Assembly: GCA_963675295.2 (NCBI GenBank)
Contig: CAXXKJ010000002.1
Location: forward strand, 3,168,001 to 3,232,000
Direction of reading: 5' to 3'
DNA: 64,000 nucleotides
DNA from: a bacterium
GTDB lineage: Bacteria > Electryoneota > Electryoneia > Electryoneales > Electryoneaceae
Shown: positions 6,446 to 41,077 of the stretch, piece after piece
Layout of the letters: every line of letters begins with the position of its first letter
Numbering within the stretch: the stretch's first letter is position 1
Position numbers and translations under genes: made by a program
The notes under the pieces: generated by a model
What the model was told of the DNA's origin: nothing
The model's input: only the letters and a program-made list of their open reading frames with translations
Databases searched by the model: none

Positions 6446-6581
6446 TGGGGCACTCGTGGGGCAGTGTCCCCAAGAATTCCCCGTAAATCTCAATAACAAC
6501 AGGCAGGAAAGAACCGGCTATCTATCAATTATTCCTACTGTTACCGCTTGTGATTTGTTGTGTATTTTGCACTGGATTGGA
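6446..6581 (+). repeat. Conserved att arm, copy 1
   Basis: TGGGGCAC/TGGGGCAG 11 bp apart, then TGTCCCCAAGAA..CCCCGTAAAT..AATAACAA..GGCAGGA..GGCTATCT..CAATTATTCCTA. Homologous to 27584 and 40851. Confidence 0.9.
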
Positions 6582-6623
6582 CTGGGGGTCAGGGGGTCGC
6601 TGGTTCAAATCCAGTCGCTCCGA
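6580..6623 (+). tRNA. 3' half only of tRNA-Pro(GGG) (attR fragment, not a functional gene)
   Basis: Loop CTGGGGG, TCAGG, GGGTC, T-arm GCTGG-TTCAAAT-CCAGT, acceptor strand CGCTCCG-A. No D-arm or 5' acceptor strand upstream. Confidence 0.9.
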
Positions 6624-6634
6624 CACTGGAACTA

Positions 6635-6665
6635 AAGGGGTTAGGTTCTGCCTGATCCTTTTTTC
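6635..6665 (+). terminator. Terminator after tRNA-Pro fragment
   Basis: AAGGGGTTAGG-ttctg-CCTGATCCTT followed by a T-run. Confidence 0.6.
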
Positions 6666-6774
6666 TATATCCCATCGAACACTTGTGATAAACATCACTG
6701 AGCCCCTTGAGGAGAGTAACCCAACGTGATGTGTTTCCGCCGTACCTTATTTTCGTGCCCGTTCCGGGGGAGGT

Positions 6775-9039
6775 ATGAGCGGTACAACATACCGTGCGCA
6801 GGCCCGTCGTCATACGTGGCGAATTGTCCCCCACCTTGCCTGTGCGCTGATCCTGCCAGCCTGCGTCGTCTTTGCCACGAACGTGAGTACGGCGGACTCT
6901 ATCCGTATCGGCGTGCTCGCGCCATACGGCAAAACGGTTTGCGTCAACCAGTGGCAGGCGACCGCGGAATGTCTGGACGCATCCATCCCTGGTACATCCT
7001 TCGAGATTGTTCCCCTCAACTACGATGAAGCTGTGGATCCGGCAATTTTGCCCGACCTTTCCTTCATGATCGTCAATCCCGCGATGTATGTGCTGCTGGA
7101 AAGGAAACACGGCGCGTCACGTATCGCCACACGCAAGACCAATGTCGCCGGGGCAGCGGTAACCACGTTCGGCGGGGTGCTACTCTGCCGGTCTGGTGAA
7201 CACGCGGTCACACTTCCCCGCGACCTCGCCGGCAAACGCATCGCGGCAGTGCATCAGGACGCCCTCGGTGGTTGGCTTGCGGTTTGGCGCGACCTGCTCG
7301 CGATGGGATTCGACCCGTTGAAGGACGCCCGCGAGGTACAGTGGCTGCAGACCAACGACGCCGTGCTCGCGGCGGTCGCCGATGGATCGGCGGACTTTGG
7401 CATTGTGCGCACCGGTGCGTTGGAACAGATGCAGGCGGCGGGGTCGTTCGATCCGGCGACGGTCACCGTGCTGCTGCTCGATCCGGCGGTCGGGGATCCA
7501 TCCGGCTTCCCGCTGTACCATTCGACGCGGTTGTACCCGGAGTGGCCGATGGTGCGGCTGGCGCACACCGATCTGCGCCTCGCGGAACAGGTCAGCGCGG
7601 CGTTGCTGCAGCTGCGTCCCGGCAGTCCAGCTTCACAGGCGGCTGGAATCGCCGGCTGGACCATCCCGTTAAACTACGAGGACGTGAATCAGGCGCTGCG
7701 TGAAACGCATACCGCACCGTATAACCACGAAAGCCGGATCACCGTCGCGGAGGTCATTCAGGAATACGGAACGATCCTGCTGCTGATTGTTGCGCTCCTG
7801 CTGGGCAGTGTCGTTGCGATCAGCGTGATCGTGGTCCTGAATGGCCGGTTGCAAAAGACCATCCTCCGCCTGAAATCCGAGAAGAAGGTTCGGGAACGTA
7901 CCGAAACTGCCCTCTCGTCCAGCGAAACCCGATTCCAGAGCATTGTCGAAAATGCCCATGAGGGCATCGCGGTGCTTGCCGGCGAACGTATCCTGCTGCA
8001 CAACGATGCGTTCCGTAACCTGTTCGGTGGGGAAGATGGTCCGGCCACTTTCCCCGACAACCTCATCGACCTGATCCATGAAGACGACCGCGAGGCGGTT
8101 CAAGCTGTGTTGGACCGGGCCTTTGATGGCCAGCTTCCCGAAACACCGTTGTATTTCCGCACGGATTCCGGCACTGAGATCGAGATGAGCTTGACCGGGA
8201 TGGAATATGATACCGGCTGGGCAGTACTCGGGATAGCCCGTGACATTACAGAAGCACGCGAGGTGGAACGTCGGCGTCAGGAAGCGATCCAGTTGACGCA
8301 GGACAGCGCCCGGCTGGCGTCAGTGGGAGTACTGTCGGCGGGGATCACGCACGAGATCAACCAGCCGTTGAGCGCGATCCAACTCAGCAGCGACAGCGTC
8401 GCGTTGTGGCGGGATCAGAATCCGGACACGTTGCCACCGTTCGTGTCGGAACTGGTTGACGAAATCTCGCAGGGCGCGGCGCGGATTGGTTCGATCATCG
8501 AACACATGCGCTCGTACTGGGTCCATTCCGCCCCGGCGGTAACGGATATCGTCGACCTAAACGAGGCCGTCAAACGTGCGCTGACCCTGCTCACGATGCA
8601 GATTCGCAATCACGAGATCCAGCTTGAATTGAATCTGTCCGGGACGTCATTGCCAGTTTCAGGCGAACAGGTGCAACTGGAGCAGATCTTCAGCAACCTC
8701 GTCGCCAACGCCATCCACGCACTGGATGAAGCCAACACCGATGACAAACGAATCCGTGTCTTCTCCGGACGTGACAGGGGGCGCTGCTTCGTCGAGATCA
8801 CCGATACCGGTCCCGGCTTGCCGACCACCGATATGGACCAGTTGTTTGATCCGTTCTATTCCACCCGTCAGCCGGGCAAGGGAATGGGATTAGGACTGGC
8901 AATTGTGAAGATGTTCGTTGAGCGTCACCGAGGTACGATTCAGGCGGTGCAGAACAAGGGTGGCGGGTCAACGTTCCGTGTCACCATTCCGCAGGCAACC
9001 GACAGCGAGAAAAGCGATGCGCATACTGTACGTGGATGA
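6775..9039 (+). CDS. Sensor histidine kinase with periplasmic PhnD-like binding domain and PAS (TtrS/ThsS-like)
   Basis: N-terminal substrate-binding domain with STRLYPEWP; TM; PAS; HEINQPL; DTGPG; GMGLGL. Confidence 0.9.
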   Translation: MSGTTYRAQARRHTWRIVPHLACALILPACVVFATNVSTADSIRIGVLAPYGKTVCVNQWQATAECLDASIPGTSFEIVPLNYDEAVDPAILPDLSFMIVNPAMYVLLERKHGASRIATRKTNVAGAAVTTFGGVLLCRSGEHAVTLPRDLAGKRIAAVHQDALGGWLAVWRDLLAMGFDPLKDAREVQWLQTNDAVLAAVADGSADFGIVRTGALEQMQAAGSFDPATVTVLLLDPAVGDPSGFPLYHSTRLYPEWPMVRLAHTDLRLAEQVSAALLQLRPGSPASQAAGIAGWTIPLNYEDVNQALRETHTAPYNHESRITVAEVIQEYGTILLLIVALLLGSVVAISVIVVLNGRLQKTILRLKSEKKVRERTETALSSSETRFQSIVENAHEGIAVLAGERILLHNDAFRNLFGGEDGPATFPDNLIDLIHEDDREAVQAVLDRAFDGQLPETPLYFRTDSGTEIEMSLTGMEYDTGWAVLGIARDITEAREVERRRQEAIQLTQDSARLASVGVLSAGITHEINQPLSAIQLSSDSVALWRDQNPDTLPPFVSELVDEISQGAARIGSIIEHMRSYWVHSAPAVTDIVDLNEAVKRALTLLTMQIRNHEIQLELNLSGTSLPVSGEQVQLEQIFSNLVANAIHALDEANTDDKRIRVFSGRDRGRCFVEITDTGPGLPTTDMDQLFDPFYSTRQPGKGMGLGLAIVKMFVERHRGTIQAVQNKGGGSTFRVTIPQATDSEKSDAHTVRG

Positions 9040-10435
9040 TGACGAACAGGCACGGCGGGTAGTGCGCAAGTCAATCGCCGGATTACTTGGCTATGATGTG
9101 GTCGAATGTGCCACCGTCGACAGGGCGCTCGACTTGCACCGCTCGGATCCATTCAAGCTGATCCTCAGCGACATCCGCATGCCCGGCAAAAGCGGCCTCG
9201 ATCTGCTCGCCGAACTACGCCACAATGCGGACATTCCGCCCGCCGACGTCATCTTCTACACGGGTTTCGCCGACCTCGATACCGCTGTCGCTGCACTGCG
9301 GCTAGGCGCATTCGACCTGATCAGCAAGACCGCCCGCGCACGTGACCTGCTGGACGTGATCCACCGTTGGGAGCAGGAATCCACGACACGCGAGCAGTCA
9401 GCTGACACCTCGCCGTCGTCACAGGTTGAAGAAACTGAGCCTGTCACCTCCGAGGTCTATTTCCCGGACGACACGTGGCTCGGGCACTACTCGGAAGAGA
9501 TGCACGAGATCGTCACCCTCGCGTTACGTCTGCACGAGGACGACCAGGCGCCGGTCCTGATCGAGGGCGAAACCGGCACCGGCAAGGAACAGGTGGCGAA
9601 GCTGGTGCATCATGGCCGCAACGGTAGCGGTAAACCGTTCGTCATTCTTAACTGTTCCGCGTTGACCCCGACGCTCTATGAGAGCGAACTGTTCGGCCAT
9701 GAGGCCGGCGCATTCACCGGCGCACGCAAGCATGGCGCGCCCGGCAAGCTCGCCGCGGCAGACGGTGGCACGTTGTTTCTCGACGAAATCGGCGAGATGC
9801 CGCTGGACTTGCAGCCTAAGCTGCTTCAATTCCTTCAATCACGGCAGTATTACCCCGTCGGCGGAGTGGAACCGAAACAGGTCCGTGTTCGCATCATCGC
9901 GGCAACCAACCGCAGCCTCGCGGAGATGGTCGAAGCAGGCAGTTTCCGTCGTGACCTGTTCTACCGGCTGAACATGATGCGGATGCAACTCCCGCCTTTG
10001 CGTGACATGTCCGAATCGATCGGCCCGTTGGCTCAGCGGATGCTGGTCGAAGCCGCGCGTGAGAAGCACCGCCGATTTAAAAGCATTCACCCGGATGCCA
10101 TCACCCGGCTGCAGACCTACCCCTGGCCCGGGAATATCCGTGAGCTGCGTAACGTAATCGAGCGCGCCATCCTGCTCAATGACGCGCCCGAGTTGCTCCC
10201 GCAACACCTGCCAATCCTGGCGGCGGATCTCGATGAACGACGTGACGTCGTATCCCTCGGCGACTTGTCGTTCACGCTGCCTCTGGATTCCCTGCCGCTT
10301 GAGACGCTCGAACGGGAGGTGATCGTCGCCGCACTCAACCGGTTTGATGGCAACCAGAGCCGCGCGGCGGACTACCTCGGCCTCTCCCGCTACGCATTGA
10401 AACGCCGGTTGGAGAAGTACGGGCTCAACGGCTGA
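9017..10435 (+). CDS. Sigma54-dependent response regulator (REC-AAA+-Fis HTH)
   Basis: [42 protein letters not shown]-terminal HTH. Confidence 0.95.
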
Positions 10436-10463
10436 TCACTCTCACCCCGATGTAGTTCCAGCC

Positions 10464-10612
10464 TGGGCGAAATCACCCATCTCCCTGTTTCGCCCCTCGC
10501 AGATCCGCCCGGCGCGGGCGTTTTCGCGCGCCAACGCCGCCTCAGACGAAGCCTCTAAGCTAATGATTACCAGTATGTTGCCCGTCATCCGCACGACTGG
10601 CATGCGCTTTGA
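10464..10612 (+). promoter_or_regulatory. Putative sigma54 promoter and enhancer upstream of cysC
   Basis: TGGCATG-cgct-TTGA at 10598-10612 (GG-N10-GA variant). Near-palindrome TGGGCGAAATCACCCA at 10464-10479. Adjacent to a bEBP gene. Confidence 0.55.
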
Positions 10613-10677
10613 CTATGTGTGTGGAAACGAACTGTCACACGTACCGCCTCGCCGGTACTCGCAGCAGGGAGAATCAT

Positions 10678-11316
10678 ATGATCGAACGCAAGGCGACCAA
10701 TATCACGCGGCACGAAGGGCATGTCAGCCGCGCCATCCGTGAGACATTGCTCGGCCAGAAGGGCTGCACGATCTGGCTGACCGGGCTACCATCCTCGGGT
10801 AAAAGCACGACAGCCTTCACGCTGGAACATGAGCTGGTGCAGCAGGGGCATCTCGCGTACGTGCTGGACGGCGACAACATCCGCTTCGGCCTCAATCGAA
10901 ACCTAGGTTTTTCGCCCAATGACCGCGCGGAAAACATCAGACGGATCGGTGAGGTCGCGCTGCTGTTTGCGGATACCGGCGTCATCGCAATCACCAGCTT
11001 CATCTCCCCGTACCGTGAAGATCGTGACCTCGTGCGGGAACGCCACAATGATCTCGGCATTCCGTTCATCGAGGTCTTCGTCGACACCCCGCTGCGTGTC
11101 TGCGAGGAACGGGATCCCAAAGGTCTGTTCAAGAAGGCTCGCGAGGGTGTGATCAAGGATTTCACCGGAATCGACGCGCCGTACGAAAAGCCGGTTGTGC
11201 CCGACTTGGTGCTGAAAACCGACCACATGACGCCCGAGGAGACAGCGTTCCAGATCGTCGATTTCCTGCAGTCCCAGGCGCTGCTTCCGGGAGCTGTTGA
11301 TCGGGCGCTGGCCTGA
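10678..11316 (+). CDS. cysC: Adenylyl-sulfate kinase
   Basis: IWLTGLPSSGKST, LDGDNIR, DRAENIRR, ISPY, RDPKGL, FTGIDAPYE. Confidence 0.96.
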   Translation: MIERKATNITRHEGHVSRAIRETLLGQKGCTIWLTGLPSSGKSTTAFTLEHELVQQGHLAYVLDGDNIRFGLNRNLGFSPNDRAENIRRIGEVALLFADTGVIAITSFISPYREDRDLVRERHNDLGIPFIEVFVDTPLRVCEERDPKGLFKKAREGVIKDFTGIDAPYEKPVVPDLVLKTDHMTPEETAFQIVDFLQSQALLPGAVDRALA

Positions 11317-11322
11317 GGCGGA

Positions 11323-13023
11323 TTGAACGTGAACACGCACTCCCAACCCACGGGCCGCATGCTGCGTCGGCGAATTATCGCGGCAATTCTGGCGGTCTCC
11401 CTTCTACCGGTCCTGCTGCTGGGTGTCGGCTCGTGGGTTGTTTTTGGACGATTGCTCGATCAGAAGGCGATGGATCTGCAACGCGCCGTGGTGAGTCATC
11501 ACGCGGAATCCGTTGACTCCTTCATGCAACAACAGGTCGACATGCTGACACTGATACCCGGCCTGAGCAGCATGAGCGAGATTCTCGCGGATGGGTCACC
11601 ACGCGCCGTGTTGCAGCAGCTCAATGAAACCAGTAGCGGCGCGTTCGTCGATCTTGGCGTGATCGATCACCTTGGACGGCATTGTGGTTACACCGGTCCC
11701 TACGAACTGCTCGACAAGAAGTACGCGAATGAAACGTGGTTCCGTGAGGTGATGAAGCAGGGGGTGTATGTAAGCGACGTGTTCCTCGGCTTTCGCGGCG
11801 TGCCACATGTGATCATTGCGGTTCGGGTCAACACGGACAGCGATCCGTGGATTTTGCGTGCGACGATCAGCAGCGACCGGCTGAAAGCGAACCTGCTGGC
11901 GGCGTCGCTGGGGGAACATGGCGATGTCTGGCTGCTGAACCAGGACGGCGAGTTGCAGAGTGATTCGCGAACGCTGGCGATCCTTGAACACGCCCCGTTG
12001 CCGATGATCGAGCCGTTCGCCGGCGTCCGTGAGGACAAACTGGCCATTGACGGGGAAGCGTACCTCGTGGTCAGCCGCTGGATCAACCATGGCCGCTGGC
12101 TGCTGGCGGCGGTGCAGCCTGAAGCGGAAGTGCGCGCGCCGATCCGCCGGGCGATGCTGCTTGGCATAGCGGTGGTCGTCATCGCCATCGTGATCGTCTT
12201 CTTCACCACGCTGTTCGCCACATGGCGCCTGACCCGTCTGATCGACAAAACCACCGATGAGCGGGACCGTCTGCAGCAGGCGTTCAACCGGTCGGCAAAG
12301 CTGTCATCAGTCGGCGAACTGGCGACCGGCCTCGCGCATGAGATCAACAACCCGCTCGCGATTATCGGCGCCGAACAGACCAACCTGCGCGACCTGCTGG
12401 CTGAATCAAACGGCCACGCTTCCCACAAATCCGAGCTGCTGGAATCGGTCGATCGTGTTGACCGGCAGGTCAAGCGCTGTGCGTCGATCACCACACGCAT
12501 GCTGCAGTTTGGCCGCAAGCAGGCGGGCGAATCGCGTCCGCTGGTGCTGCTCGACCGTCTCAGCGAAATCGTGGACGGTCTCGAGCGGCAACTGACGCTG
12601 CACAACATCACCGTTGACCTTAAGGTCCCCGCCGATCTGCCGCAGGTCCTGACCGAACCGATAGAATTCGAACAGGTAATGCACAACCTGTTCGGGAACG
12701 CGATGCACGCGATGCCAGATGGCGGGACGATCACTCTGCGTGCCTACCCGAATCTGACCAGCAACGGCTGGCGTGTGATCCTCGAAGTGAGTGATACCGG
12801 CAGCGGCATGCCCGCGGAAATCGCGGAACGTGCGTTCGAACCGTTTTTCACGACAAAACCGGTCGGCCAGGGCACAGGACTCGGGCTGTCTGTCTGCTAT
12901 GGCATGGTCGCAGGTTGGGGCGGCGAAATCCAGCTGCACAGTCAGCCGGGCAAGGGAACCACTGTCCGGCTGCTGTTACCGGCCGCGGAGATTTCAGCTT
13001 CCATGCAAGAGGGGGTGATTTGA
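11323..13023 (+). CDS. Sensor histidine kinase (Cache-type)
   Basis: Two TMs around SDVFLGFRGVPH; HEINNPL; GTGLGL. Start uncertain. Confidence 0.92.
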   Translation: MNVNTHSQPTGRMLRRRIIAAILAVSLLPVLLLGVGSWVVFGRLLDQKAMDLQRAVVSHHAESVDSFMQQQVDMLTLIPGLSSMSEILADGSPRAVLQQLNETSSGAFVDLGVIDHLGRHCGYTGPYELLDKKYANETWFREVMKQGVYVSDVFLGFRGVPHVIIAVRVNTDSDPWILRATISSDRLKANLLAASLGEHGDVWLLNQDGELQSDSRTLAILEHAPLPMIEPFAGVREDKLAIDGEAYLVVSRWINHGRWLLAAVQPEAEVRAPIRRAMLLGIAVVVIAIVIVFFTTLFATWRLTRLIDKTTDERDRLQQAFNRSAKLSSVGELATGLAHEINNPLAIIGAEQTNLRDLLAESNGHASHKSELLESVDRVDRQVKRCASITTRMLQFGRKQAGESRPLVLLDRLSEIVDGLERQLTLHNITVDLKVPADLPQVLTEPIEFEQVMHNLFGNAMHAMPDGGTITLRAYPNLTSNGWRVILEVSDTGSGMPAEIAERAFEPFFTTKPVGQGTGLGLSVCYGMVAGWGGEIQLHSQPGKGTTVRLLLPAAEISASMQEGVI

Positions 13024-13895
13024 TGGAAACGATCTCGCCCATCCGTCTGCTGATCGTCGATGACGAACAGGAATTCACCGCGTCCCTCGCGAAGGTGCTG
13101 ACACGGCGTGGTATCGCAGTTCATGTCTGCGAAAACGGTTCCGCCGCACTCGACTACCTCGCCCGGCATCATGCCGACGTGGTGCTACTGGACATCAAAA
13201 TGCCCGGCATGGACGGCGAGGAGGTGTTCATCCACCTGCAGCGCCGTTGGCCGGATTTGCCGGTGATCGTGCTGACCGGCCATGGCGACATCCCGCAGGC
13301 GTTTCGCATGTCAAAACACGGCGTCGTCGATTACCTGCCGAAGCCGTGCCACGTGGACGAATTGTACGATCATGTGCAGCAGGCCGCGCGTGAACGAAAA
13401 ACGGCGGCGCGTTCCGTTCTCCAACCGGAACCGCCTGACCCGCCTGCCGCCAACGATGGCGAGGACAAGCCGAATGTGCTGCTCGTCGATGACGAACCCG
13501 AGCTGCTGGCCGGTCTAGTGAATGTTCTGGAACGTCGCGGGCTGGCGGTGCGGACGGCGGTATCGGGCGAGGATGCGTTGGCGGTGCTCGCGGATACGTG
13601 GATCGATGTCGTCGTCATCGACATCAAGATGCCGGGCATGAGCGGACTGGAGTTGCTGAAACGAATCCGTAGCGAACGACCAGATGTCGAGGTCCTGATG
13701 TTGACCGGTCACCCACGTGTGGATGATGCGTCCGAGGCGATAAAGCTCGGTGCGGCGTATTTCCTGACCAAACCGTTCGACACGGCGGAGTTGGTGATGC
13801 GGATCGAAAGCGCGTTTCACCGCCGCCGGCAGACCTTCCGGCGCCGCCAGGAAGAGGCGATCCGCAGCGTATTCGACCGGGGCATGGTCGACTGA
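13023..13895 (+). CDS. Tandem two-receiver-domain response regulator
   Basis: Two LLxVDDE...DIKMPG...KP units. Confidence 0.9.
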   Translation: METISPIRLLIVDDEQEFTASLAKVLTRRGIAVHVCENGSAALDYLARHHADVVLLDIKMPGMDGEEVFIHLQRRWPDLPVIVLTGHGDIPQAFRMSKHGVVDYLPKPCHVDELYDHVQQAARERKTAARSVLQPEPPDPPAANDGEDKPNVLLVDDEPELLAGLVNVLERRGLAVRTAVSGEDALAVLADTWIDVVVIDIKMPGMSGLELLKRIRSERPDVEVLMLTGHPRVDDASEAIKLGAAYFLTKPFDTAELVMRIESAFHRRRQTFRRRQEEAIRSVFDRGMVD

Positions 13896-13947
13896 ACGGC
13901 GGCCGGAAGCTGCCGCAAAACGCATCAACCCACAACATGGGAAGGGG

Positions 13948-14835
13948 GTGAGCATGGAAGCGACTACCGTGAAAGCCGATACCGTCCACGTACTGTTCGT
14001 GGACGATGACACCGATTTCACTCAATCCCTGAGTCCGGTGCTGGAACGACGTGAGTTTACCGTCACCGCGCTGGAAAGTGAGACGCAGGCGCTGGACTAT
14101 CTCGATCATGTTGTCCCGGATGTGATCCTGCTCGACCTCAAGCTGAACGGCGGCAGCGGCACCGATCTGCTGCAAAAGATCCGTGAGAAGGACAATCAGA
14201 CGCCGGTGATCATCCTCACCGGGCACGGGTCGATGGACAGCGTGGTGAGTTCGATCCGGTTCGGCGTATCCGACTACCTGCAGAAGCCGGTGGACATTGA
14301 TCTGCTGGTCGAACACCTGCTCGATTGCACGAGCAATGTCGCCCGGCAACCGATGCGTGAACGGTCGCTGGTCGAGTTGATGCGGCCGGTGTCACTTTAC
14401 CCGAAGCTGCTCTGCAACCAGCCAATTGAGGACGCGCTGTATGTCGTCCGCAAATGGTGTTTCCCTGACGAAAACGATCCGGATCATGTCCGTTCGGCAC
14501 TGGTGTACGAACCCAACGGCGACTTCATCGGGATGCTCCGCTTTCACGATCTGCTGTCACTGGTACTGCCGGAATACTTGCGGGAATCCAGTCATCCGAA
14601 CTTTTTCCCGGGCATGGTCCTCGCCCAGTGCAAGCTGATTGACCACATGCGGGTGCTGGCGTTGATGAGCAAGCAGGTTTACATCCGCCAAAACGCGCCG
14701 CTGATGGAGGCGGTGCAGCTGATGGTCAAGCATCACGTGGTCAACCTGCCGGTGATGGACGGCAAGCGGCTGGCGGGGGTGTTGCGCGAACGGGATGTTG
14801 TCCGGATGCTGCTCGATTGCATGTACACGAAGTAA
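13948..14835 (+). CDS. Response regulator with C-terminal CBS pair
   Basis: REC (VLFVDDD, LLDLK, KP), then CBS (APLMEAVQLM...LPVMDGKRLAGVL). Confidence 0.88.
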   Translation: MSMEATTVKADTVHVLFVDDDTDFTQSLSPVLERREFTVTALESETQALDYLDHVVPDVILLDLKLNGGSGTDLLQKIREKDNQTPVIILTGHGSMDSVVSSIRFGVSDYLQKPVDIDLLVEHLLDCTSNVARQPMRERSLVELMRPVSLYPKLLCNQPIEDALYVVRKWCFPDENDPDHVRSALVYEPNGDFIGMLRFHDLLSLVLPEYLRESSHPNFFPGMVLAQCKLIDHMRVLALMSKQVYIRQNAPLMEAVQLMVKHHVVNLPVMDGKRLAGVLRERDVVRMLLDCMYTK

Positions 14836-14873
14836 CGCTGAAAACGAAATCACGGGAAGAAGGGTTCAGGGAG

Positions 14874-16145: not shown

Positions 16146-16219
16146 TTCCATCGAATAGGGAAACGACGACCCGCAGACCTGAAGCTTGGGCACAGGCCTG
16201 CGGTTGTGGGAGATAAACG

Positions 16220-21723: not shown

Positions 21724-21738
21724 GCATTACCCGCATCG

Positions 21739-27505: not shown

Positions 27506-27583
27506 ATCAGGTGATGATGGCATCATTCGTAGTACCTGCCATCAGAAACAAGTACCGGTAGTGTTTTAACTAGTGTTTTTCCA

Positions 27584-32415: not shown

Positions 32416-32467
32416 GTGGAACCCATCGGCAGCATTTCGCCGGTGGATTTCATTCGTGGAGGACTCC

Positions 32468-35257: not shown

Positions 35258-35358
35258 TCCAGAGCTATATGCCCGTGTCAGAAAACTCGCGGACGCGGAC
35301 CCGAAAACCAAGGATAGAAGAAACTTCAGATACAACGCGGTACGGAGGAGGGAGTACG

Positions 35359-36471
35359 ATGAAGCACAGTATGATTGCTGTTTGCATGCTGCTGATCTCA
35401 GGCGCGGGATTCGCCCAGATGCAGCATTTTAATCCGGTTGACCCGACCGGCCAGGTGTACAACGTGTCGGCGCGCGGCATCTACATCGAAGGTCTCGCGC
35501 TGCAGCTCGGGGACGAGGTCGGCATCTTTGACGGCGACTTGTGTGTTGGCGCAAAAGTGGTCGAAAAGCCGGTCAATGTCAGCGCCGGTCAGTTCCTCAC
35601 CATCCCGGCTCAGGAAGGTGATGAGAACCTGCAGCTTCCGGGGTTCACGCCGGGCCACGATATCAACGTGATTGTGTGGCAGATGCACAGCGACACCGAG
35701 ATTAACATCACCGAAGAGTGGGCGCTGGGCGATGGCACGTTCGGCGCAGGCGTCGCCGCGATCATGCACCCGATCTTTCACGGTGACCAGTCGATCCAGG
35801 GCCCGGAACACTTTGTCCCGGTTGAACCGGCGGACCCGCAGGACATTCAAACTCCGGCGTATGGTGTGGTCGTAGACGCTGCCACGGTTGACAGTGAACC
35901 GCTGGAACCGGGCGACGAAATCGCAATCTATGACGGTGATTTGTGCGTTGGCGCGGCAAAGCTGCCTTATGAGCTGGGCGGCGATTTGTCGCTGATGTTC
36001 ATGACCTGGGGTGAATACAACAGCGCGGACGGGTACACGGTCGGTAACGACTTGCTGGTGCGAGTCTGGGATGCGTCTGCGTCACTGGAGATTGAGGGGA
36101 CACCAGATTTCTACCAGGGATCGACTTTTGAATCCGACCCTTTTGCGATCATCTCGTCGTTGATGTCCTCGGATGTCGATGACAGCCCTGCTGCCATCCT
36201 GCCGGGCAAATACGAGATCGTGAACGCCTACCCGAACCCGTTCAACGCCGCACTGACGATTCAGGTCGCGTTGCCCGCGCCGGGCGAGGTGTCGCTGGCG
36301 GTGTGGGATGTGCTCGGCCGTCAGGTTGCGACTGTTACAGCGGGATCGTTGTCCGCCGGTGAACACGGCATCACGTGGAACGCGACCGGGACACCCTCCG
36401 GCGTCTATTTCGTGCGCGCGTACTTCGGTGGCGAGGTGATGGGCATGCGCAAGGTCACGCTCTTGAAGTAA
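35359..36471 (+). CDS. Secreted protein with two HFxPV domains and T9SS-type CTD
   Basis: Signal peptide; two GDE(V/I)xx(F/Y)DGDLCVG units; AYPNPFN...RKVTLLK. Confidence 0.85.
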   Translation: MKHSMIAVCMLLISGAGFAQMQHFNPVDPTGQVYNVSARGIYIEGLALQLGDEVGIFDGDLCVGAKVVEKPVNVSAGQFLTIPAQEGDENLQLPGFTPGHDINVIVWQMHSDTEINITEEWALGDGTFGAGVAAIMHPIFHGDQSIQGPEHFVPVEPADPQDIQTPAYGVVVDAATVDSEPLEPGDEIAIYDGDLCVGAAKLPYELGGDLSLMFMTWGEYNSADGYTVGNDLLVRVWDASASLEIEGTPDFYQGSTFESDPFAIISSLMSSDVDDSPAAILPGKYEIVNAYPNPFNAALTIQVALPAPGEVSLAVWDVLGRQVATVTAGSLSAGEHGITWNATGTPSGVYFVRAYFGGEVMGMRKVTLLK

Positions 36472-36583
36472 CGGATAGTAAAAGACAGGAACAGATAGGA
36501 ACAGATTGCAAAAGACGTAGAAGATGCGTCTGCCCGGACCGTAAAGAGCTGGTCGGGTCCGAGTATCCAGACAGTATGCAGCG

Positions 36584-36618
36584 GGGACACTTTGGGGACA
36601 AAGTGTCCCAGGTTTTTC
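36584..36618 (+). terminator. Hairpin/terminator resembling the att-arm motif
   Basis: GGGACACTTTG-GGGA-CAAAGTGTCCC followed by aggttttt. Confidence 0.55.
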
Positions 36619-36862
36619 TCCCGCAGCCTGGTATCGTATCTGCGTTCGGATCGGGCACCTGTATTGTCTTCGTACCAGATCGCACTCCTCCCTGAGAGCC
36701 TCTCCAATTCCGGCAAATAAGAAACTCCCGAAAAACCAATACGCGCCAAACACTACGATGCGATCCTCTCGCCGTATTCATGGCGCTGCAGTACACGACA
36801 CGTTCTCCGGGAGGCCGGAAAACGTAACTACAGAGTTTACCTGACTTTCAGGAGGATTTTCC

Positions 36863-37963
36863 ATGTTCCGTAGGACCACTCTGTCCGTTCTGCTGCTCGC
36901 GCTTTTCGCCATCGTTCCGCTGGCGAACGCTCAGCACTTTACCCCTGTCGATCCGACGGGTCTTCCGTACGCGATCGCGATTGAGTACGGCAAGATTGGC
37001 AACACCGCATTGAAGACGGGTGACGAAGTCGCCGCGTTTGATGGTGACCTGTGTGTCGGTTCCGCGATCATTGATGGTCGTGTGACCCCGGAAACCGCTC
37101 TTGGCTTCACCGCTTGGGAAGAAGACACGAATCAGGGCCTGATCGGCTTCACCGATGGCAACTCGATTGAAATCCGCGTCTGGCGTCAGGGTCAGGGCGA
37201 GTTCGTTGCGACCTCGAACTGGGCGACCGGCGGCAATTTCGGCGACGGTTTCGGCTCGGTGGCGTCCAGCGTCGCCGGTGGCACTCCGCGTCCGGTCGTT
37301 GTTGACATTTATCCGAACGGCACCCCGGTGATCCCGTTCGGTGGTGGCTACTTCTACTATCACGTGATGATGCACAACCAGTCGCAGCTCAGCGGCCAGG
37401 TAAATGTCACGATTCAGTATGAACTCCCGACCGGCCAGGCGTTCACCGCGGCGGCGGCGAACATCAACCTCAACGGCGGCCAGACGATCAATGTCGACCG
37501 TGAGCAGTATGTCTCTCAAAACTTCCCGACCGGATACTTCTGGTACGTGATCACTGTGCGCTACGGTCAGCTGACCCTGTGCTCGGATGTCATCGCCGTC
37601 GAGAAGCTCGGTAGTGTCGTGGATGGCGCGATGCCGGAATTCGTCTATGACGAAGCCGTCTCTGAGATCGCTGACATGGGCGCGACCGTGAACCTGCCGG
37701 ATGAGTTCGGCCTTGGCAATGCCTACCCGAACCCGTTCAACCCGACCACCACGCTGAACCTCGCCCTGCCGATGGCTGGCCAGGTCAAAGTGGCTGTGTT
37801 CAACACGCTCGGCCGCCAGGTTGCCATCCTGAATAACGGCGTCCTCGACGCCGGCAACCACACCCTGAGCTTTGATGGGTCCCATCTGGCCAGTGGCGTG
37901 TACTTCATCCAGGCGACCGCCGGTGCGGAAACCGCGATCCAGAAGGTCACCCTGATGAAGTAA
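36863..37963 (+). CDS. Secreted protein with HFxPV domain, pre-CTD Ig-like domain and CTD
   Basis: QHFTPVDPTG...FDGDLCVG; IPFGGGYFYY; AYPNPFN...QKVTLMK. Confidence 0.85.
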   Translation: MFRRTTLSVLLLALFAIVPLANAQHFTPVDPTGLPYAIAIEYGKIGNTALKTGDEVAAFDGDLCVGSAIIDGRVTPETALGFTAWEEDTNQGLIGFTDGNSIEIRVWRQGQGEFVATSNWATGGNFGDGFGSVASSVAGGTPRPVVVDIYPNGTPVIPFGGGYFYYHVMMHNQSQLSGQVNVTIQYELPTGQAFTAAAANINLNGGQTINVDREQYVSQNFPTGYFWYVITVRYGQLTLCSDVIAVEKLGSVVDGAMPEFVYDEAVSEIADMGATVNLPDEFGLGNAYPNPFNPTTTLNLALPMAGQVKVAVFNTLGRQVAILNNGVLDAGNHTLSFDGSHLASGVYFIQATAGAETAIQKVTLMK

Positions 37964-38008
37964 GCGGTACCCGACATTCAGCCTGATTTGTACAGGCTAT
38001 GACGTACC

Positions 38009-38041
38009 GGAAAGGCCCCAGTTCTCCCTGGGGTTTTTCCT
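38009..38041 (+). terminator. Probable terminator
   Basis: GGAAAGGCCCCAG-ttctcc-CTGGGGTTTTTCC. Confidence 0.55.
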
Positions 38042-38394
38042 CTCTCAGGCAGTGGGCTATAGGCTGAGGGCGATGGGCTGTGGGCCAGGAGCGGCTGGTA
38101 TTCGTGGCCCGGCTTGGTGTTGGTTTTTCAAGTCGCATGTCAAGGCGTGGTATCGAACCAGCAACCAGTTCCATGTTACACAAATGCGTGGGTACCATTC
38201 AGATTTGATGTGCCTGTTAACTCCATTATAAACAGTGTTATAGATTATGAATTTGCGCCTCTTGCGGGTGATGTTCAGCTCCCCAAACACTGCCTGAACC
38301 ATCCCCCGACACCTCCCTCATACGGCAGGTCAACTTTCCCGCACACGTCCAATTGACGATTTCCCGAAACACCTTGACTTCATGGAGGAGTACA

Positions 38395-40845
38395 ATGCGT
38401 ACCCTGATGTCCGTGCTTTTTACCGTGCTGATGCTCGCCGGTGCGGCGAATGCTCAGTTTACCCTGACTCTGCTGCACAACAATGACGGCGAGTCCCAGT
38501 TGATCAATCTCGGTGGCGACCAGGAAGACTTCGGTGGCGTCGCTCACTTCGCCAGCCTCGCGGATTCCTGCAAGGCCTGGGCGGATGCGAACACCGATGG
38601 TTACCTGATGGTCACCTCCGGCGACAACTTCCTCCCCGGCCCGGAGTGGAACGCCAGCCTGAACGATGGCATCTACTATGACGCCGTCGCGATCGACCTG
38701 CTCGGCTACAACACCCTCTGCCTCGGCAACCATGATTTCGACGCCGGCCCGGATGTGTTGGCCGAGTTCATCAGTGAAGCCAATGTCTACACCTCGCCGA
38801 CCTGGCTGAGCTGCAACCTCGACTTCAGCAATGAGCCGAACCTGCAGGCGCACGTAGACAACGGCCGCATCGCCAGCAGCAAGATGGCTGATGTGAACGG
38901 CACGATGGTTGGTATCGTTGGCGCGACCACCCCGAACCTCGACTTCATCTCCAGCCCTGGCGATGTCATCATCAACGATGACGTGGTCGCCGCGGTGCAG
39001 GCCGAAATCGACGACCTCAGCAACAACGGCGCGGACATCATCATCCTGATCTCCCACCTGCAGGGCATCGTCGAAGACCTCGCGATCATTCCGGAACTCA
39101 GCGGCCTCGACGTCGCTGTGGCCGGCGGTGGTGACGAGCTGCTCGCCAACGATGGCGACCTGCTGGTCCCGGGCGACGAAGATGAAGTGTATGGTGCATA
39201 CCCGTTGACCGCGACGAACCTCGATGGCGACACTGTTCCGGTGGTCACCACCAGCGGCAACTACGCCTACCTCGGCCAGATCGTGCTCAACTTCGACATC
39301 AACGGCGACCTCATTGACTGGGATACGGACCACAGCGGCCCGAAGCGCGTTGCGAACGAAAACTACCCGGACGGTGTCCCGGCGAACACGACGATGCAGA
39401 CGATGGTCGTTGACCCGGTCGCGGCCTACGTTGCGAACCTCGGCGCGAACATCATCGCCAGCTCGGATGTCGATCTTGACGGTATCCGCAACCACGTGCG
39501 CGGATTTGAGACCAACCAGGGCAATTTGATCGCAGACGCGATGCTCGCAATCGCGATGGATCGTTACGCTGATTTCGGTGCCCCGATGCCGACGGTCGCG
39601 TTCCAGAACGGTGGCGGTATCCGTAACGACGCCATCATTTCCGCTGGCGACATTTCCGAGCTGACCACATTTGACGTGCTGCCGTTCGGCAACATCCTTT
39701 CGATCGTGGAAGATGTCGATCCGATGCAGTTCAAGGCCGTGATGGAAAATCACGTCGCCGCGATCGGCAACGGCGCGGGCACCGGCCGTTTCGGCCAGGT
39801 TTCCGGCTATCGTTTCGAATATGATGCGACCTTCCAGGCGCAGGAATACGACACCGACGGCAACATCACCATCCCGGGCGAACGCATCCGCAAAGCGTGG
39901 CTGGCTGACGGTACCGTGTTGGTCGAAGACGGCGTGGTCAACCTGGACGCCCCGCACCAGAACATCGTCGTTGGTGACTTCATCGCCGGCGGTGGGGACG
40001 AGTACCCGTTCCAGGGCTTGAACTTCACCCGCCTCGGTATTTCCGACCAGCAGACGCTGGCGACCTACCTGTCCGACATGGGTACGGTTGAAGCACGCGA
40101 CTACCCGCGTGGTGGCGAGATGCGCGTCGTCCGTCTCGACCAGCCGCTGGGTCTCGAAGCCAGCCCGATGTTCGGCGTCTTCCCATCCGTCCCGGCGGAA
40201 GGGGGTTACTTCCCGTTGACCGCGACGATCAGTAACCTGACCATGGATGAGATGATGTACGACGCGTGGGTCGATGTCTGGGGTCCGAACGGCCTGCAGG
40301 GCAACATCTACAGTGGCGTCAAAATGTACATGGACGTGGCCATTTTCGGCAACGCCATGGACACATATAACGCTTTGCAGTTTGTCCCGGGCTACGCTCC
40401 GGAAGGCACCTACCTTTACATCGTCAACATCGGTCACTACCCGAATGAAGTGATCGCGCGCGACTGGTTCGGCTTCGAGAAGGAAGGCGTTGATCCGTCC
40501 GCGATCGGTGACTGGATGATCAAGCTGAACAACGGTGAGGTCGAAGCTGCGGATGCCGCGGCTGCGACTGAGCTGCCGACCGAGTTCGCCGTTGGCCAGG
40601 CCTACCCGAATCCGTTCAACCCGACCACGACGTTGAGTGTCAGCCTGCCGTCAGCAGCGAAGCTGAATGTCACCGTGTTCAACGTGATGGGCCAGCAGGT
40701 TGCGGAAATCGCCAACGGTTCGTACAACGCCGGCATGCACAACCTCGTGTTCGACGCGAACGGCATGGCCAGCGGCGTCTATTTCGTTCGCACCCGGGTT
40801 CCGGGTCATCTGAACCAGCTGCAGAAGGTGATGTTGGTGAGGTAA
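38395..40845 (+). CDS. Secreted 5'-nucleotidase/UshA-family metallophosphoesterase with CTD
   Basis: LHNNDGES, GDNF, GNHDFD, ISHL, ETNQGNLIAD, NGGGIR, LPFGN; AYPNPFN...QKVMLVR. Confidence 0.92.
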   Translation: MRTLMSVLFTVLMLAGAANAQFTLTLLHNNDGESQLINLGGDQEDFGGVAHFASLADSCKAWADANTDGYLMVTSGDNFLPGPEWNASLNDGIYYDAVAIDLLGYNTLCLGNHDFDAGPDVLAEFISEANVYTSPTWLSCNLDFSNEPNLQAHVDNGRIASSKMADVNGTMVGIVGATTPNLDFISSPGDVIINDDVVAAVQAEIDDLSNNGADIIILISHLQGIVEDLAIIPELSGLDVAVAGGGDELLANDGDLLVPGDEDEVYGAYPLTATNLDGDTVPVVTTSGNYAYLGQIVLNFDINGDLIDWDTDHSGPKRVANENYPDGVPANTTMQTMVVDPVAAYVANLGANIIASSDVDLDGIRNHVRGFETNQGNLIADAMLAIAMDRYADFGAPMPTVAFQNGGGIRNDAIISAGDISELTTFDVLPFGNILSIVEDVDPMQFKAVMENHVAAIGNGAGTGRFGQVSGYRFEYDATFQAQEYDTDGNITIPGERIRKAWLADGTVLVEDGVVNLDAPHQNIVVGDFIAGGGDEYPFQGLNFTRLGISDQQTLATYLSDMGTVEARDYPRGGEMRVVRLDQPLGLEASPMFGVFPSVPAEGGYFPLTATISNLTMDEMMYDAWVDVWGPNGLQGNIYSGVKMYMDVAIFGNAMDTYNALQFVPGYAPEGTYLYIVNIGHYPNEVIARDWFGFEKEGVDPSAIGDWMIKLNNGEVEAADAAAATELPTEFAVGQAYPNPFNPTTTLSVSLPSAAKLNVTVFNVMGQQVAEIANGSYNAGMHNLVFDANGMASGVYFVRTRVPGHLNQLQKVMLVR

Positions 40846-40850
40846 TTCCA

Positions 40851-40987
40851 CGGGACACTCATTGAGGCAGTGTCCCCAAGAATTGCTCGTACCATAAAAC
40901 AACACAGAGCAGGAGAGAGTCGCCTATCTCATGAAAATACCTGCTGAAACAGTCTGCGGGCTGCTGTGATTGTTGGACTTAACAGAA
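40851..40987 (+). repeat. Conserved att arm, copy 3 (more diverged)
   Basis: GGGACACTC..GAGGCAGTGTCCCCAAGAA..GCAGGAGAG..CTATCTC..TGTGATT..ACAGAA; 137 nt to the anticodon loop. Confidence 0.8.
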
Positions 40988-41032
40988 CTTCGAACCGCGA
41001 AGTCTTGGGTTCGAATCCCTACAGGCGTACCA
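40988..41032 (+). tRNA. 3' half of a tRNA-Arg-like sequence with TCG anticodon loop (att fragment, chimeric or decayed)
   Basis: Loop CTTCGAA, then CCGCGAAGTC; T-loop and acceptor identical to the 27.7-kb fragment. Confidence 0.8.
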
Positions 41033-41039
41033 TACCGAT

Positions 41040-41077
41040 CAAGGGGTTACGGGAAACCGTGGCCCCTTGTTCTTTTC
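41040..41077 (+). terminator. Terminator after tRNA fragment (near-identical to 27772)
   Basis: CAAGGGGTTACGG-gaaa-CCGTGGCCCCTTG followed by a T-rich tail. Confidence 0.85.

Follow-up and report, generated by a model that had tools for sequence, protein, structure and literature searches.

A probable accretion array at a tRNA-Arg(ACG) gene with a tRNA-Pro(GGG) junction inside it

How can one repeated sequence, at one chromosomal locus, run into the 3' halves of different tRNA genes? This question is raised by the stretch of 64,000 nt analysed here (the window, to which positions refer unless a contig is named), which lies on contig C2 of a genome of 4.81 Mb (G000), a metagenome-type assembly in two contigs (C1 and C2) with a completeness of 92.8%. 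The common view of a tRNA-linked island is of one integrase, one tRNA gene and one stack of cognate fragments. The reading that we regard as probable is that of a 42-kb accretion array at a tRNA-Arg(ACG) gene, where the first element (E1) carries an integrase, two further blocks (E2 and E3) are integrase-less and the junction with a tRNA-Pro half is a relic of target switching. Comparisons were made with the sister species (G001), with two other genomes (G002 and G003) and with public-run data, that is, contigs assembled from four runs, which are broken at the arm repeats.

The initial annotation described a repeat of ~135 bp at positions 6446, 27584 and 40851, and three copies were found exactly there (Table 1). 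A significant alignment between the copies had been set beforehand as a test, and BLASTN gave one for every pair: copies 1 and 2 are 79% identical over 167 nt (E 5e-35), copies 2 and 3 are 75% identical over 227 nt (E 2e-34) and copies 1 and 3 are 76% identical over 79 nt (E 1e-5). The arm opens with TGGGGCAC / TGGGGCAG, with a spacing of 11 bp, plus an inverted TGTCCCC, and the 40851 copy is degenerate in this part. A 19-nt pattern of the arm start, with up to 3 mismatches, occurs twice in the window where 0.22 occurrences were expected, a count reached by 1 of 100 shuffles. The reported distance of 136, 136 and 137 nt from the arm start to the anticodon loop was confirmed as well, with the loops CTGGGGG, CTACGGA and CTTCGAA starting at 6582, 27720 and 40988; behind each come a tRNA 3' half and a hairpin/T-run. 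Moreover, a fourth and degenerate copy lies at 27808, and when the arm was searched across the genome and the adjoining tRNA tabulated, two further copies appeared outside the window, which makes six arms at three tRNA loci. These two close ordinary islands, one at tRNA-Pro(GGG) (C2:3700103 to 3710010) and one at tRNA-Arg(CCT) (C1:159003 to 154196).

Table 1. Features of the array inside the window; arm-type sites and the replication protein are predictions.
Positions	Strand	Feature	Evidence
1..473	+	E1 tyrosine integrase, 3' part	Pfam Phage_integrase + Int_N; AlphaFold model
470..1297	+	E1 gene, function unassigned, 275 aa	no Pfam or NCBIfam match
2054..3529	+	E1 putative replication protein, NrS-1 polymerase helix-bundle domain + C-terminal HTH	PF22763 8e-11, PF13730 6e-9
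4356..6440	+	E1 cargo, FG-GAP repeat protein with T9SS C-terminal sorting domain	profile match
6446..6581	+	P arm copy 1	113 bits; arm-type site cluster 6446-6476
6582..6666	+	tRNA-Pro(GGG) 3' half (to ~6625) + element-type terminator	98%/51 nt to tRNA-Pro(GGG); aligns with both Pro att sites
6667..27583	+	E2, integrase-less cargo block	G001 homologue 82-88% between Arg(CCT) halves
27584..27719	+	P arm copy 2	112 bits
27720..27809	+	tRNA-Arg(ACG) 3' half (to 27765) + terminator	95%/104 nt to C2:3167035-3167138; 96%/51 nt
27808..27990	+	P arm copy 4 (degenerate) + tRNA-like pseudo-half	R1 model 76 bits; alignment
28135..40845	+	E3, integrase-less cargo block	84.7%/12.6 kb to DNA 3' of tRNA-Pro(GGG) in G001
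40851..40987	+	P arm copy 3, most diverged of the three	95 bits
40988..41077	+	distal tRNA half + terminator, right end of 42-kb insertion	26/26 nt; loop CTTCGAA

That this repeat is an att arm, as had been proposed, is supported by the placing of its motif. Exact GGGGCA-N5-GGGGCA pairs occur seven times in the whole genome, and 7/7 are in att arms and nowhere else: three in P arms and two pairs in each of two P' arms, the latter lying 3' of the intact tRNA-Arg(ACG) and tRNA-Pro(GGG) genes. In the other integrase families of the genome, both of these positions are likewise occupied by repeat pairs, particular to each family. Judged by sequence, this repeat of ~135 bp represents the P arm in att sites of the lambda/HP1 type; it is found at the right end of mobile elements, and predicted element-specific repeated arm-type sites are present in both P and P' arms. 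The cluster would consist of two direct GGGGCA sites one helical turn apart and one inverted copy, which a lambda/HP1-like tyrosine integrase probably binds through its N-terminal domain; the arm would terminate in the anticodon loop, where crossover is predicted.

The observation that no intact tRNA lies between the sites is correct for the window, where ARAGORN finds none, but it is an effect of the window edge: an intact tRNA-Arg(ACG) gene is located only 920 bp to the left (G000:C2:3167004-3167080). The attL that had been predicted left of the window was found at this gene, whose 3' side presents a terminator and a GGGGCA pair, then, 100 bp on, an inverted pair, and after these the integrase gene. 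A direct repeat of 104 nt (95% identity) connects C2:3167035-3167138 with window positions 27720-27822, the intact gene being placed 28.7 kb upstream of its 27720 half. An intact tRNA-Arg(ACG) with a cognate 3' half in the same orientation (27720-27765) is thus a property of E1 and E2 jointly and of neither alone. With these matching Arg(ACG) cores and a P' arm on the integrase side, E1+E2 may be a unit that is still mobile today. No excision product, circle or empty-site joint was seen in the assembled contigs of the four runs, which end at the repeats.

The tRNA-Arg(ACG) site of the sister species (G001:C71) is empty: the homologue of window position 41346 onward begins ~300 bp past this gene, and all 42 kb are therefore an insertion. 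It would occupy the part of tRNA-Arg(ACG) from the anticodon loop to the 3' end, with most of the array contained in the window. Both cargo blocks are found in the sister species at other tRNA loci, E3 directly downstream of tRNA-Pro(GGG) and E2 between Arg(CCT) halves (Table 1), while G002 and G003 gave no match to either at E<=1e-30 beyond short matches of 71-75%. This agrees with the earlier view that the two blocks (its segments B and C) are integrase-less and are not syntenic core genome. In G001 the cargo of E2 and E3 is conserved but the arms are not, and other arm types flank it; the att scaffolds around both blocks have been replaced between the two sister species. The suggestion that one element family keeps its arm is therefore valid within this genome but not in the sister species.

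The third tRNA half needed to be reinterpreted. It had been taken as Arg-TCG, but a tRNA-Arg(TCG) gene is absent from the whole genome, and the last 26 nt of the 40988 half and its terminator are those of tRNA-Arg(ACG), from which it derives, its first ~19 nt (the anticodon arm) being divergent. The arm does run into different kinds of tRNA half, of which the window has Pro-GGG and Arg-ACG and contig C1 has Arg-CCT, but Arg-TCG is not one of them. No origin could be assigned to the pseudo-half after the 27808 arm, whose best tRNA score was 10 against a shuffle maximum of 11. E2 is then bounded by a Pro half on the left and an Arg half on the right, and E3 by the pseudo-half and the Arg-derived half.

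HP1 and many island integrases cross over within the anticodon loop, and a crossover there is likely in the present elements. At the Pro and Arg(ACG) sites, the edge of identity between tRNA and half falls within 1-2 nt upstream of the 5' edge of the loop; the Asn and Lys(TTT) sites have it at the corresponding position. In the halves at 40988 and on C1 tRNA identity begins only past the anticodon stem, and these edges are left unexplained by an anticodon-loop crossover unless decay or conversion took place later.

The complete E1 integrase gene (G000:C2:3167322/3167427-3168473) starts 574-679 bp left of the window, which holds one integrase fragment (36-473). As noted from the start, it is the single integrase of the array: an integrase beside an intact tRNA is found in E1 only, E2 and E3 having none. 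It matches Phage_integrase and Int_N (PF00589, PF24624), and its best PDB sequence match is the HP1 integrase. The AlphaFold model (pLDDT 84) has three domains, with an N-terminus folded as a three-strand sheet (2-8, 14-20, 28-32) and a helix (35-50), and aligns with full-length lambda Int (1z1b_A) over 345 columns (E 2e-8). On this model the protein is a lambda-Int-like integrase with catalytic, core-binding and predicted arm-binding domains, the last of them indicated by the fold and by an Arm-DNA-bind_3 match in Pfam that is below threshold (E 0.03). Relatives with 41-60% identity have a tRNA directly upstream in 9 of 12 cases, with 8 different anticodons. E1, the tRNA-proximal element, alone has retained its integrase, together with a replication-type gene. 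The 3' end of its cargo gene at 4356..6440 and the adjoining arm match the end of the tRNA-Arg(CCT) island on C1, with 76% identity over 601 nt.

Regulators are frequent in E2 (histidine kinases, response regulators and two sigma-54 activators), which also encodes an APS kinase, a porin, a sulfate-type ABC transporter and a Na/sulfate symporter fusion. E3 encodes a CpeT-like protein, a TonB-dependent-receptor-like OMP, three T9SS-tailed proteins and a 5'-nucleotidase. E2 and E3 have no P' arm, and neither is therefore a complete att-flanked element when taken alone.

One of the unusual features of the array is the unit at 6446-6666, composed of arm, Pro half and terminator but placed inside an Arg array. 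The argument that a Pro half here misfits simple tandem integration is upheld, since at least one non-canonical event is required. The P' arm of E1 and the 5' part of its integrase gene are 87.7% identical over 915 nt to those of the decayed tRNA-Pro island, and E1's P arm together with the Pro half matches the right end of that island, with 86% identity over 221 nt. In addition, the anticodon stem CCTGA/TCAGG is common to 5 of the 50 tRNAs, Pro(GGG) and Arg(ACG) included, so these two genes probably offer the same core-binding sites. We are inclined to suggest that the lineage switched between tRNA-Pro(GGG) and tRNA-Arg(ACG), and that 6446-6666 is probably a fossil junction from the time when the integrase and its arm occupied tRNA-Pro(GGG). 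A second foreign half exists in the same genome, in the tRNA-Asn array, where an arm of the Asn family is followed by an Arg(ACG) half.

The relic could also have arisen by recombination from arm to arm, a possibility to which we give a minor but real weight and which differs from target switching at this locus in the relic's origin only. E1 would always have been at Arg(ACG), and an excised, integrase-less Pro-type circle (arm-Pro half-terminator-E2) would have joined its P arm, either by homologous recombination or in a synapse held by the integrase, leaving arm and Pro half to the left of E2 and arm and Arg half to its right. The order predicted in this way is exactly the order observed, with no additional deletion. 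There is also a precedent: for archaeal integrases, homologous recombination of related elements at different tRNAs has been proposed to give heterologous attL and attR (in the part of PMC7253208 available). Moreover, the arm of the tRNA-Pro island resembles the 27584 arm distally (12/16 informative sites) and the 6446 arm in the last ~12 nt (5/6), as expected from a reciprocal exchange, but the signal in this mosaic-arm test for a core swap is weak, the Fisher p of 0.02 becoming a non-significant 0.10 once the choice of breakpoint is allowed for. The arms are only 79-88% identical, and the exact runs read from their alignment go up to about a dozen bases, which is a poor substrate for homologous recombination. 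Because near-identical P' arms lie 3' of both tRNAs, a switch of the integrase lineage from Pro to Arg is still required in any case.

It is conceivable, although we consider it unlikely, that one integrase and its arm code act as a multi-locus exchanger for integrase-less blocks at Arg(ACG), Pro(GGG) and Arg(CCT). Blocks would pass from one tRNA locus to another because conserved arms could exchange a short core, made up of the tRNA half and the ~12 nt of arm in front of it; an anticodon stem common to different tRNAs would help this exchange. If so, the foreign Pro half and the foreign Arg(ACG) half would be footprints of a regular process and not accidents.

The initial annotation compared the array with an integron or a tycheposon containing stacked integrase-less modules. 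Accretion as in tycheposons or CIMEs is retained here, but the integron analogy is not. Cassettes in the integron sense, where each arm and half is an independent site and the integrase moves modules singly, also between tRNA loci, would account for six arms at three tRNA loci with one intact integrase, for the same cargo blocks at other tRNA loci in the sister species, for the second foreign half in the tRNA-Asn array and for the co-orientation of the array genes up to 41 kb; and like an integron, the array has one integrase at the head of co-oriented integrase-less modules, each ending in a related site with a variable centre. We nevertheless find this improbable. Unlike cores flank E2 (Pro/Arg) and also E3, so that a tyrosine recombinase would have no matching overlap, and the modules are without P' arms. 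There are no folded, attC-like hairpins, only a small GGGG-N6-CCCC stem at the arm start (fold z-scores of the three arms on both strands, -0.96 to -2.48). The integrase models like lambda Int and is not an IntI, scoring far below the integron-integrase cut-offs (38.5 bits against 265 for TIGR02249 and 20.7 bits against 435 for NF011946). Also unlike integrons, the blocks are multi-gene, 13-21 kb long and located at a tRNA gene. Finally, the sister species conserves the cargo but not the arms, and the public-run contigs, which break at the repeats, contain no joints at the arms.

A wrong assembly of a Pro half into the Arg array is a very remote explanation, suggested by the nature of the assembly and by the breaking of short-read contigs at the arm repeats, but the 6446 arm is distinct (85% identical to the tRNA-Pro arm, and no copy of it), the tRNA-Pro locus lacks nothing, having an arm and a half of its own, and the public contigs match the window without differences over 27607-27759 and 27736-36608. 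Equally hard to credit is the view that T9SS cargo genes carry the arm as a 3'-UTR or RNA element, tRNA-like at its end, and that it is no recombination site: the arm does begin within 10 nt of the stop of a gene with a T9SS sorting domain in 3 of the 6 copies here and in G002, and the T arm and acceptor are better preserved than the anticodon arm in two halves, but the 27584 and tRNA-Pro-island arms come after other genes, the only other places of the motif are beside the integrase, behind two intact tRNAs, over 100 further T9SS-tail paralogues are without the arm, and there is no Rfam match.

Returning to the accretion array, the features of a lambda/HP1-type element are present: the integrase domains, arm sites in P and P', a tRNA with a cognate fragment and an empty site in a relative. 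As in the heterobivalent integrases of this type, the integrase model has three domains, arm repeats flank a core formed by the anticodon stem-loop, and the 3' part of the tRNA is duplicated; accessory-factor sites or an excisionase were not identified in the array. Accretion arrays with integrase-less CIMEs are described for ICESt1/3-type elements in the accessible portion of PMC5704250. According to that portion, a newer integrase-bearing element stands there, as here, in tandem with older blocks that keep att-type ends and have lost their recombination genes (so have E2 and E3), and matched outer sites would let the older block move in cis. A CIME, however, keeps cognate attL and attR, which E2 and E3 do not; E2 is of Pro type on the left and Arg type on the right, with no P' arm. 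Unlike the ICESt1/3-type arrays, the present one has no conjugation genes.

The tycheposons of Prochlorococcus, so far as the accessible text of their description goes (bioRxiv 10.1101/2020.12.28.424599), begin with a full tRNA and an inward-facing tyrosine recombinase, carry a small replication module next to the latter and then cargo, and finish in a partial tRNA; their islands grow through material left beside the tRNA. E1 has this gene order. In that description each tRNA has its own integrase clade, whereas here one arm type is found at Pro(GGG), Arg(ACG) and Arg(CCT). The section of the Islander paper at hand (PMC4383910) distinguishes site classes 'A' and 'J' and counts 125 tandems of 2 or more; such tandems need cognate fragments and an integrase for each member, and the array departs from this on both counts. 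Target switching of the archaeal SSV type resembles our case in that close integrases use different tRNA genes and recombination between related integrated elements is proposed to unite unlike attL and attR, but in the available part of PMC7253208 those integrases have attP within their own gene and no arm sites, and the route is a chromosomal inversion, which misfits the direct orientation here.

The array departs from the usual reading of tRNA-linked islands in several ways. One arm type serves three tRNA loci, near-identical P' arms follow Pro(GGG) and Arg(ACG), and a non-cognate tRNA half within an array occurs twice in one genome. The sulfate-uptake/regulatory block and the surface-protein/receptor block each occupy one tRNA locus in this genome and another in its sister species, with the att scaffolds around them replaced. 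It may thus offer a concrete system for how tRNA-targeting integrases change their target and how cargo passes from island to island, and island finders that demand cognate fragments and one integrase per member would miss or mis-delimit such arrays.

As a minor observation, the open reading frames of the array taken as genes, up to 41 kb, are all on one strand, as read from the ORF list.

The 42 kb that follow tRNA-Arg(ACG) in the source genome form an array of three successive segments, E1, E2 and E3 (Table). Judged from the sequence, this array is real and of a known kind of accretion, in a lineage without an earlier description of it, and any activity of it is putative. The three copies of a ~135-bp repeat (the arm) that the initial annotation had placed in the window are all confirmed. 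They open with TGGGGCAC and, at a distance of 11 bp, TGGGGCAG; an inverted TGTCCCC comes next. The 7-nt anticodon loop of a tRNA is reached 136, 136 and 137 nt from the arm start, and beyond each loop are the 3' part of the tRNA (the half) and a hairpin with a T run. The annotation had made significant alignment between the copies one test of its proposal, and by BLASTN their similarity is far above chance (79% over 167 nt, E 5e-35, for copies 1 and 2; 75% over 227 nt, E 2e-34, for copies 2 and 3; 76% over 79 nt, E 1e-5, for copies 1 and 3). Alignment and a sequence model revealed a fourth, degenerate arm directly behind the second terminator, followed by a tRNA-like pseudo-half. When the pseudo-half was scored as a possible decayed Pro half, its best scores were a tie between Arg(ACG) and Lys(CTT), within the shuffle range.

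Table. Features of the array and of related loci (bare numbers are window positions; C1 and C2 are contigs of the source genome)
Feature	Position	Content or setting
tRNA-Arg(ACG), intact	C2:3167004-3167080	
E1	tRNA to 6666	integrase; 275-aa unknown protein; 491-aa protein (NrS-1 polymerase helix-bundle domain and HTH); FG-GAP/T9SS-tail protein; right end: arm, Pro half, terminator
Arm copy 1	6446	loop begins 6582
E2	6667-27809	21 kb; two-component and sigma-54 regulators, APS kinase, porin, sulfate-type ABC transporter, symporter fusion; right end: arm, Arg(ACG) half, terminator
Arm copy 2	27584	loop begins 27720
Arm copy 4, degenerate	27808-27943	between E2 and E3
Pseudo-half	27946-27990	between E2 and E3
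E3	ends 41077	CpeT-like protein, receptor-like outer-membrane protein, T9SS-tailed proteins, 5'-nucleotidase; right end: arm, Arg-derived half
Arm copy 3	40851	loop begins 40988
Arm and Pro(GGG) half	C2:3709806-3710010	9.6 kb downstream of intact tRNA-Pro(GGG)
Arm and Arg(CCT) half	C1:154386-154257, minus strand	4.5 kb downstream of tRNA-Arg(CCT)
Asn-family arm (repeat word GGTGCA), Arg(ACG) half, Asn-type terminator	C2:2783661-2784025	
Arg(ACG) half in tRNA-Asn(GTT) array	C2:2783851-2783895	outside window; 13 kb from tRNA-Asn, 12 kb before cognate Asn half

The window spans C2:3168001-3232000. The view that no intact tRNA lies between the sites holds inside it, where ARAGORN found no tRNA gene and no Rfam match reached the gathering thresholds, but an intact tRNA-Arg(ACG) lies 920 bp to the left. 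It is followed by a terminator, TGGGGCAC-TGG-TGGGGCAG, an inverted pair 100 bp on and a tyrosine integrase gene. The stretch from its anticodon loop through the terminator into the first repeat recurs at window 27719-27822 as a 104-nt direct repeat with 95% identity. The third half, which had been assigned to tRNA-Arg(TCG), has to be renamed: it carries the T arm, acceptor (26/26 nt) and terminator of tRNA-Arg(ACG), from which it departs in the first ~19 nt only, and tRNA-Arg(TCG) is absent from the genome. This half (40988-41010) and that at C1:154232-154250 are strongly diverged in the loop (CTTCGAA and TTTCTGA) and the 3' stem strand, while in T arm, acceptor and terminator they hardly differ from the intact tRNA; possible causes are gene conversion, decay that was uneven, or a crossover placed more to the 3' side. 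ARAGORN also called two unusual tRNAs, one with a 4-base anticodon (tttc; C2:4439111-4439194) and a tRNA-Ile(AAT) (C2:720395-720476).

When the arm was compared with the whole genome by BLASTN, as the annotation had proposed, two further copies were found, beside Pro(GGG) and Arg(CCT) halves, and the arm is thus the terminus of ordinary tRNA islands at two other loci. The tRNA-Pro island has the same P' arm (the repeats on the integrase side, after the intact tRNA) and an integrase shortened to a 202-aa N-terminal ORF, and the tRNA-Arg(CCT) island consists of two FG-GAP/T9SS cargo genes without an integrase. Exact GGGGCA-N5-GGGGCA occurs seven times in 4.81 Mb, counting both strands, and all seven are in att arms: three in arms of the ~135-bp type, two in the P' arm behind tRNA-Arg(ACG) and two in that behind tRNA-Pro(GGG). 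The same design recurs, with a repeat word of its own in each case, for no fewer than six further integrases of this genome that are linked to a tRNA or tmRNA; such junctions were seen at tRNA-Gln, Asn, Lys(TTT), Leu(TAG), Lys(CTT), Ser(TGA) and tmRNA. At the distal junction the repeat pair stands ~136 nt ahead of the anticodon loop, and another pair comes just past the terminator of the intact tRNA; the spacing within a pair is ~11 bp, about one helical turn. Several P arms that are otherwise unlike have in common a CTTGTTGTG-like word ~25 nt ahead of the loop.

Crossover takes place within the anticodon loop with HP1 integrase and with many integrases of islands; earlier work also includes that of Williams (2002). 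Identity between tRNA and half starts at most 1-2 nt upstream of the 5' edge of the loop for Pro(GGG) and Arg(ACG), and at the equivalent position for the Asn and Lys(TTT) halves. The E1 tyrosine integrase (348-383 aa), whose gene enters the window from the left and ends at 473, has the Pfam domains Phage_integrase and Int_N, and its closest solved structure by sequence is HP1 integrase. A structural model (29 homologues, mean pLDDT 84) places a three-stranded sheet and a helix before the core-binding and catalytic domains and aligns with full-length lambda integrase over 345 columns; the Pfam arm-domain match is below threshold (E 0.03). From the placing of the repeats, the edges of identity and this architecture, the 135-bp repeat is therefore taken for the P arm of an attachment site of lambda/HP1 type, for which we infer that the integrase binds there and where exactly it cuts. 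The GGGG-N6-CCCC palindrome of the arm start was rejected as a crossover point, since insertion boundaries relative to the sister species fall in the tRNA 3' half. The small ORFs of E1 included no identifiable excisionase. The likeness to an integron had to be abandoned, the integrase being far under integron-integrase cut-offs and attC-like folding not being found in the arms. As the annotation had it, the window has a single integrase, with no integrase domain in E2 or E3.

At tRNA-Pro and tRNA-Arg genes with an island behind them, a single type of hairpin stands after the half, starting AAGGGGTTA (window 6635-6666 and 27772-27809, and L002, L004, L005 and L006, extracted tRNA-Pro loci of relatives). 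At unoccupied tRNA-Pro sites of relatives the terminators are unrelated to this type, so the terminator seems to travel with the element.

The Pro half at the right of E1, with the intact Arg tRNA at its left, does not fit simple tandem integration, as had been noticed from the start. Both ends of E1 resemble the decayed tRNA-Pro island, the left one (P' arm and 5' part of the integrase) with 87.7% identity over 915 nt and the right one (P arm and Pro half) with 86% over 221 nt. Since the left end adjoins intact tRNA-Arg(ACG) with the Arg terminator, and both tRNA parts are unbroken, the crossover that joined them lies outside the tRNA halves. The terminator type of the Pro half accompanies elements of the same integrase family in several relatives, so the Pro junction is derived from a Pro site that was element-borne or already occupied, rather than from a naive flank. 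The anticodon stem CCTGA/TCAGG and the two bases that open the loop are common to Pro(GGG) and Arg(ACG), and 5 of 50 tRNAs have them; the core-binding sites are therefore probably the same, with only three loop positions different. The simplest statement that the data allow is that E1 plus E2 form a composite whose two ends match, both being of Arg(ACG) type, with a fossil Pro junction in its interior, and that one integrase/arm lineage has occupied both tRNA-Pro(GGG) and tRNA-Arg(ACG).

Two routes to such a composite can be proposed. A tandem at the Pro site could have had its outer attP core later swapped for an Arg core, or a Pro-type E2 circle could have entered the arm of E1 through arm-to-arm recombination. 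Either would predict the mosaic seen in the arm at tRNA-Pro, which at distal positions matches the 27584 arm (12/16 sites) and over its final 12 nt the 6446 arm (5/6), a weak signal with a permutation p of 0.10 after correction. The ~27 nt behind the Pro terminator are possibly what decay has left of a P' repeat cluster, with 13/27 positions matching in a manual count. A single inversion between islands at two tRNAs was dismissed, all halves being in direct orientation.

In the sister species, the sequence homologous to the window from 41346 on begins no more than ~300 bp behind tRNA-Arg(ACG). By this comparison the site is empty there, an allele of the kind whose absence would have told against the initial annotation, and so the whole 42 kb is an insertion in the source genome. 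E2 and E3 are not stable syntenic core, which would have told against their mobility, since their homologues lie at other tRNA loci of the sister species. E3 is found there (84.7% over 12.6 kb) directly downstream of tRNA-Pro(GGG), with flanks syntenic with the tRNA-Pro locus of the source genome. The locus in the sister species is without the GGGGCA arm and has a different repeat trio behind the tRNA terminator, and this native-looking E3 may itself be an old integrated block; by eye, the E3 left end has no similarity to the trailer of the sister tRNA-Pro. The trio consists of GCTGGCA-like repeats at about one-turn spacing, without an integrase (contig C74 of the sister species, extracted locus L030, 10168-10400). 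E2, at 82-88% identity and with deletions in its interior, is flanked there by two Arg(CCT) halves; its contig runs on into synteny of the tRNA-Arg(CCT) locus of the source genome, and ahead of E2 is a weakly related arm with other repeat words. The cargo identity of the two species (82-88%) is similar to that of conserved flanks (82-88%) but the att scaffolds differ, so that cargo and scaffold have separate histories.

In the two further relatives, G002 and G003, E2 had no match and E3 only short matches of 71-75%, and E1 had no match better than 65-72% in these or the sister species. BLASTN of arm plus half against 40 relatives found the tRNA part in 40/40 and the arm part in 0/40. A sequence-only model of the arm (R1), built from six arms and run on 16 genomes of the family, had strong matches in the source genome only (6) and weak ones in the sister species (24 bits) and G002 (28 bits). 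A metagenome scan with the 19-nt arm start returned at least 119 stretches; among the 80 loci listed R1 had three weak matches (17-19 bits), none accepted as a real arm. No further arms beyond the genus were thus found in the 40 relatives, the 16 family genomes and the metagenome loci listed.

The tRNA-Asn(GTT) array of the source genome holds a second non-cognate half, of Arg(ACG) type (95.6% over 45 nt). The second module of this array had no match in the sister species, G002 or G003, except for a 550-nt stretch (L106:870-1420, C2:2784470-2785020) that is 96% identical to two places in the sister species (C49, C18). As this is far above the 82-88% of syntenic DNA, the stretch may be a small mobile repeat.

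The integrase family is large, with 7069 proteins at E<=1e-20 among 8000 candidates scored. In 9 of 12 genomic loci of relatives at 41-60% identity a tRNA is directly upstream, and these nine have eight anticodons (Met twice, Ser-TGA, Asn, Lys-CTT, Arg-GCG, Thr-TGT, Lys-TTT and Arg-CCT); over long times, members of the family have thus often changed target.

Tandem islands, sites centred on the anticodon and displaced tRNA fragments are all standard (Islander, PMC4383910), and ICE/IME systems decay to integrase-less att-flanked blocks and accrete in tandem with cis-mobilisation (PMC5704250). The suggested likeness to tycheposons is borne out by their layout, shared with E1; these islands also grow beside the tRNA and have a separate integrase clade per tRNA (bioRxiv 10.1101/2020.12.28.424599). 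For archaeal integrases a switching model has recombination between related elements unite unlike attL and attR (PMC7253208), and in phage Ms6 an altered attP core redirected integration to other tRNA-Ala genes (PMC1762012). The less usual features are one arm type at three tRNAs, non-cognate halves within arrays, and cargo that sister species share but have at different tRNA loci. In our literature search no tRNA island array was found described as having a non-cognate tRNA half in its interior, which does not prove absence.

Contigs of four public runs from one study, available as contigs only, break at the arms and have no bearing on excision; the part-cover in run X4 consists of low-depth fragments, and the joints listed for these contigs fall in T9SS-tail paralogues, with none at the att sites. 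For 3/6 arms of the source genome and one arm of G002 (window 6393-6445 and 40798-40850; C1:154387-154853; G002:C21, locus L035), a cargo gene whose product has a C-terminal T9SS sorting domain has its stop codon at most 10 nt ahead of the arm start. Homology is continuous from the T9SS sorting domain into the arm, and the genome has well over 100 paralogous T9SS-tail segments.
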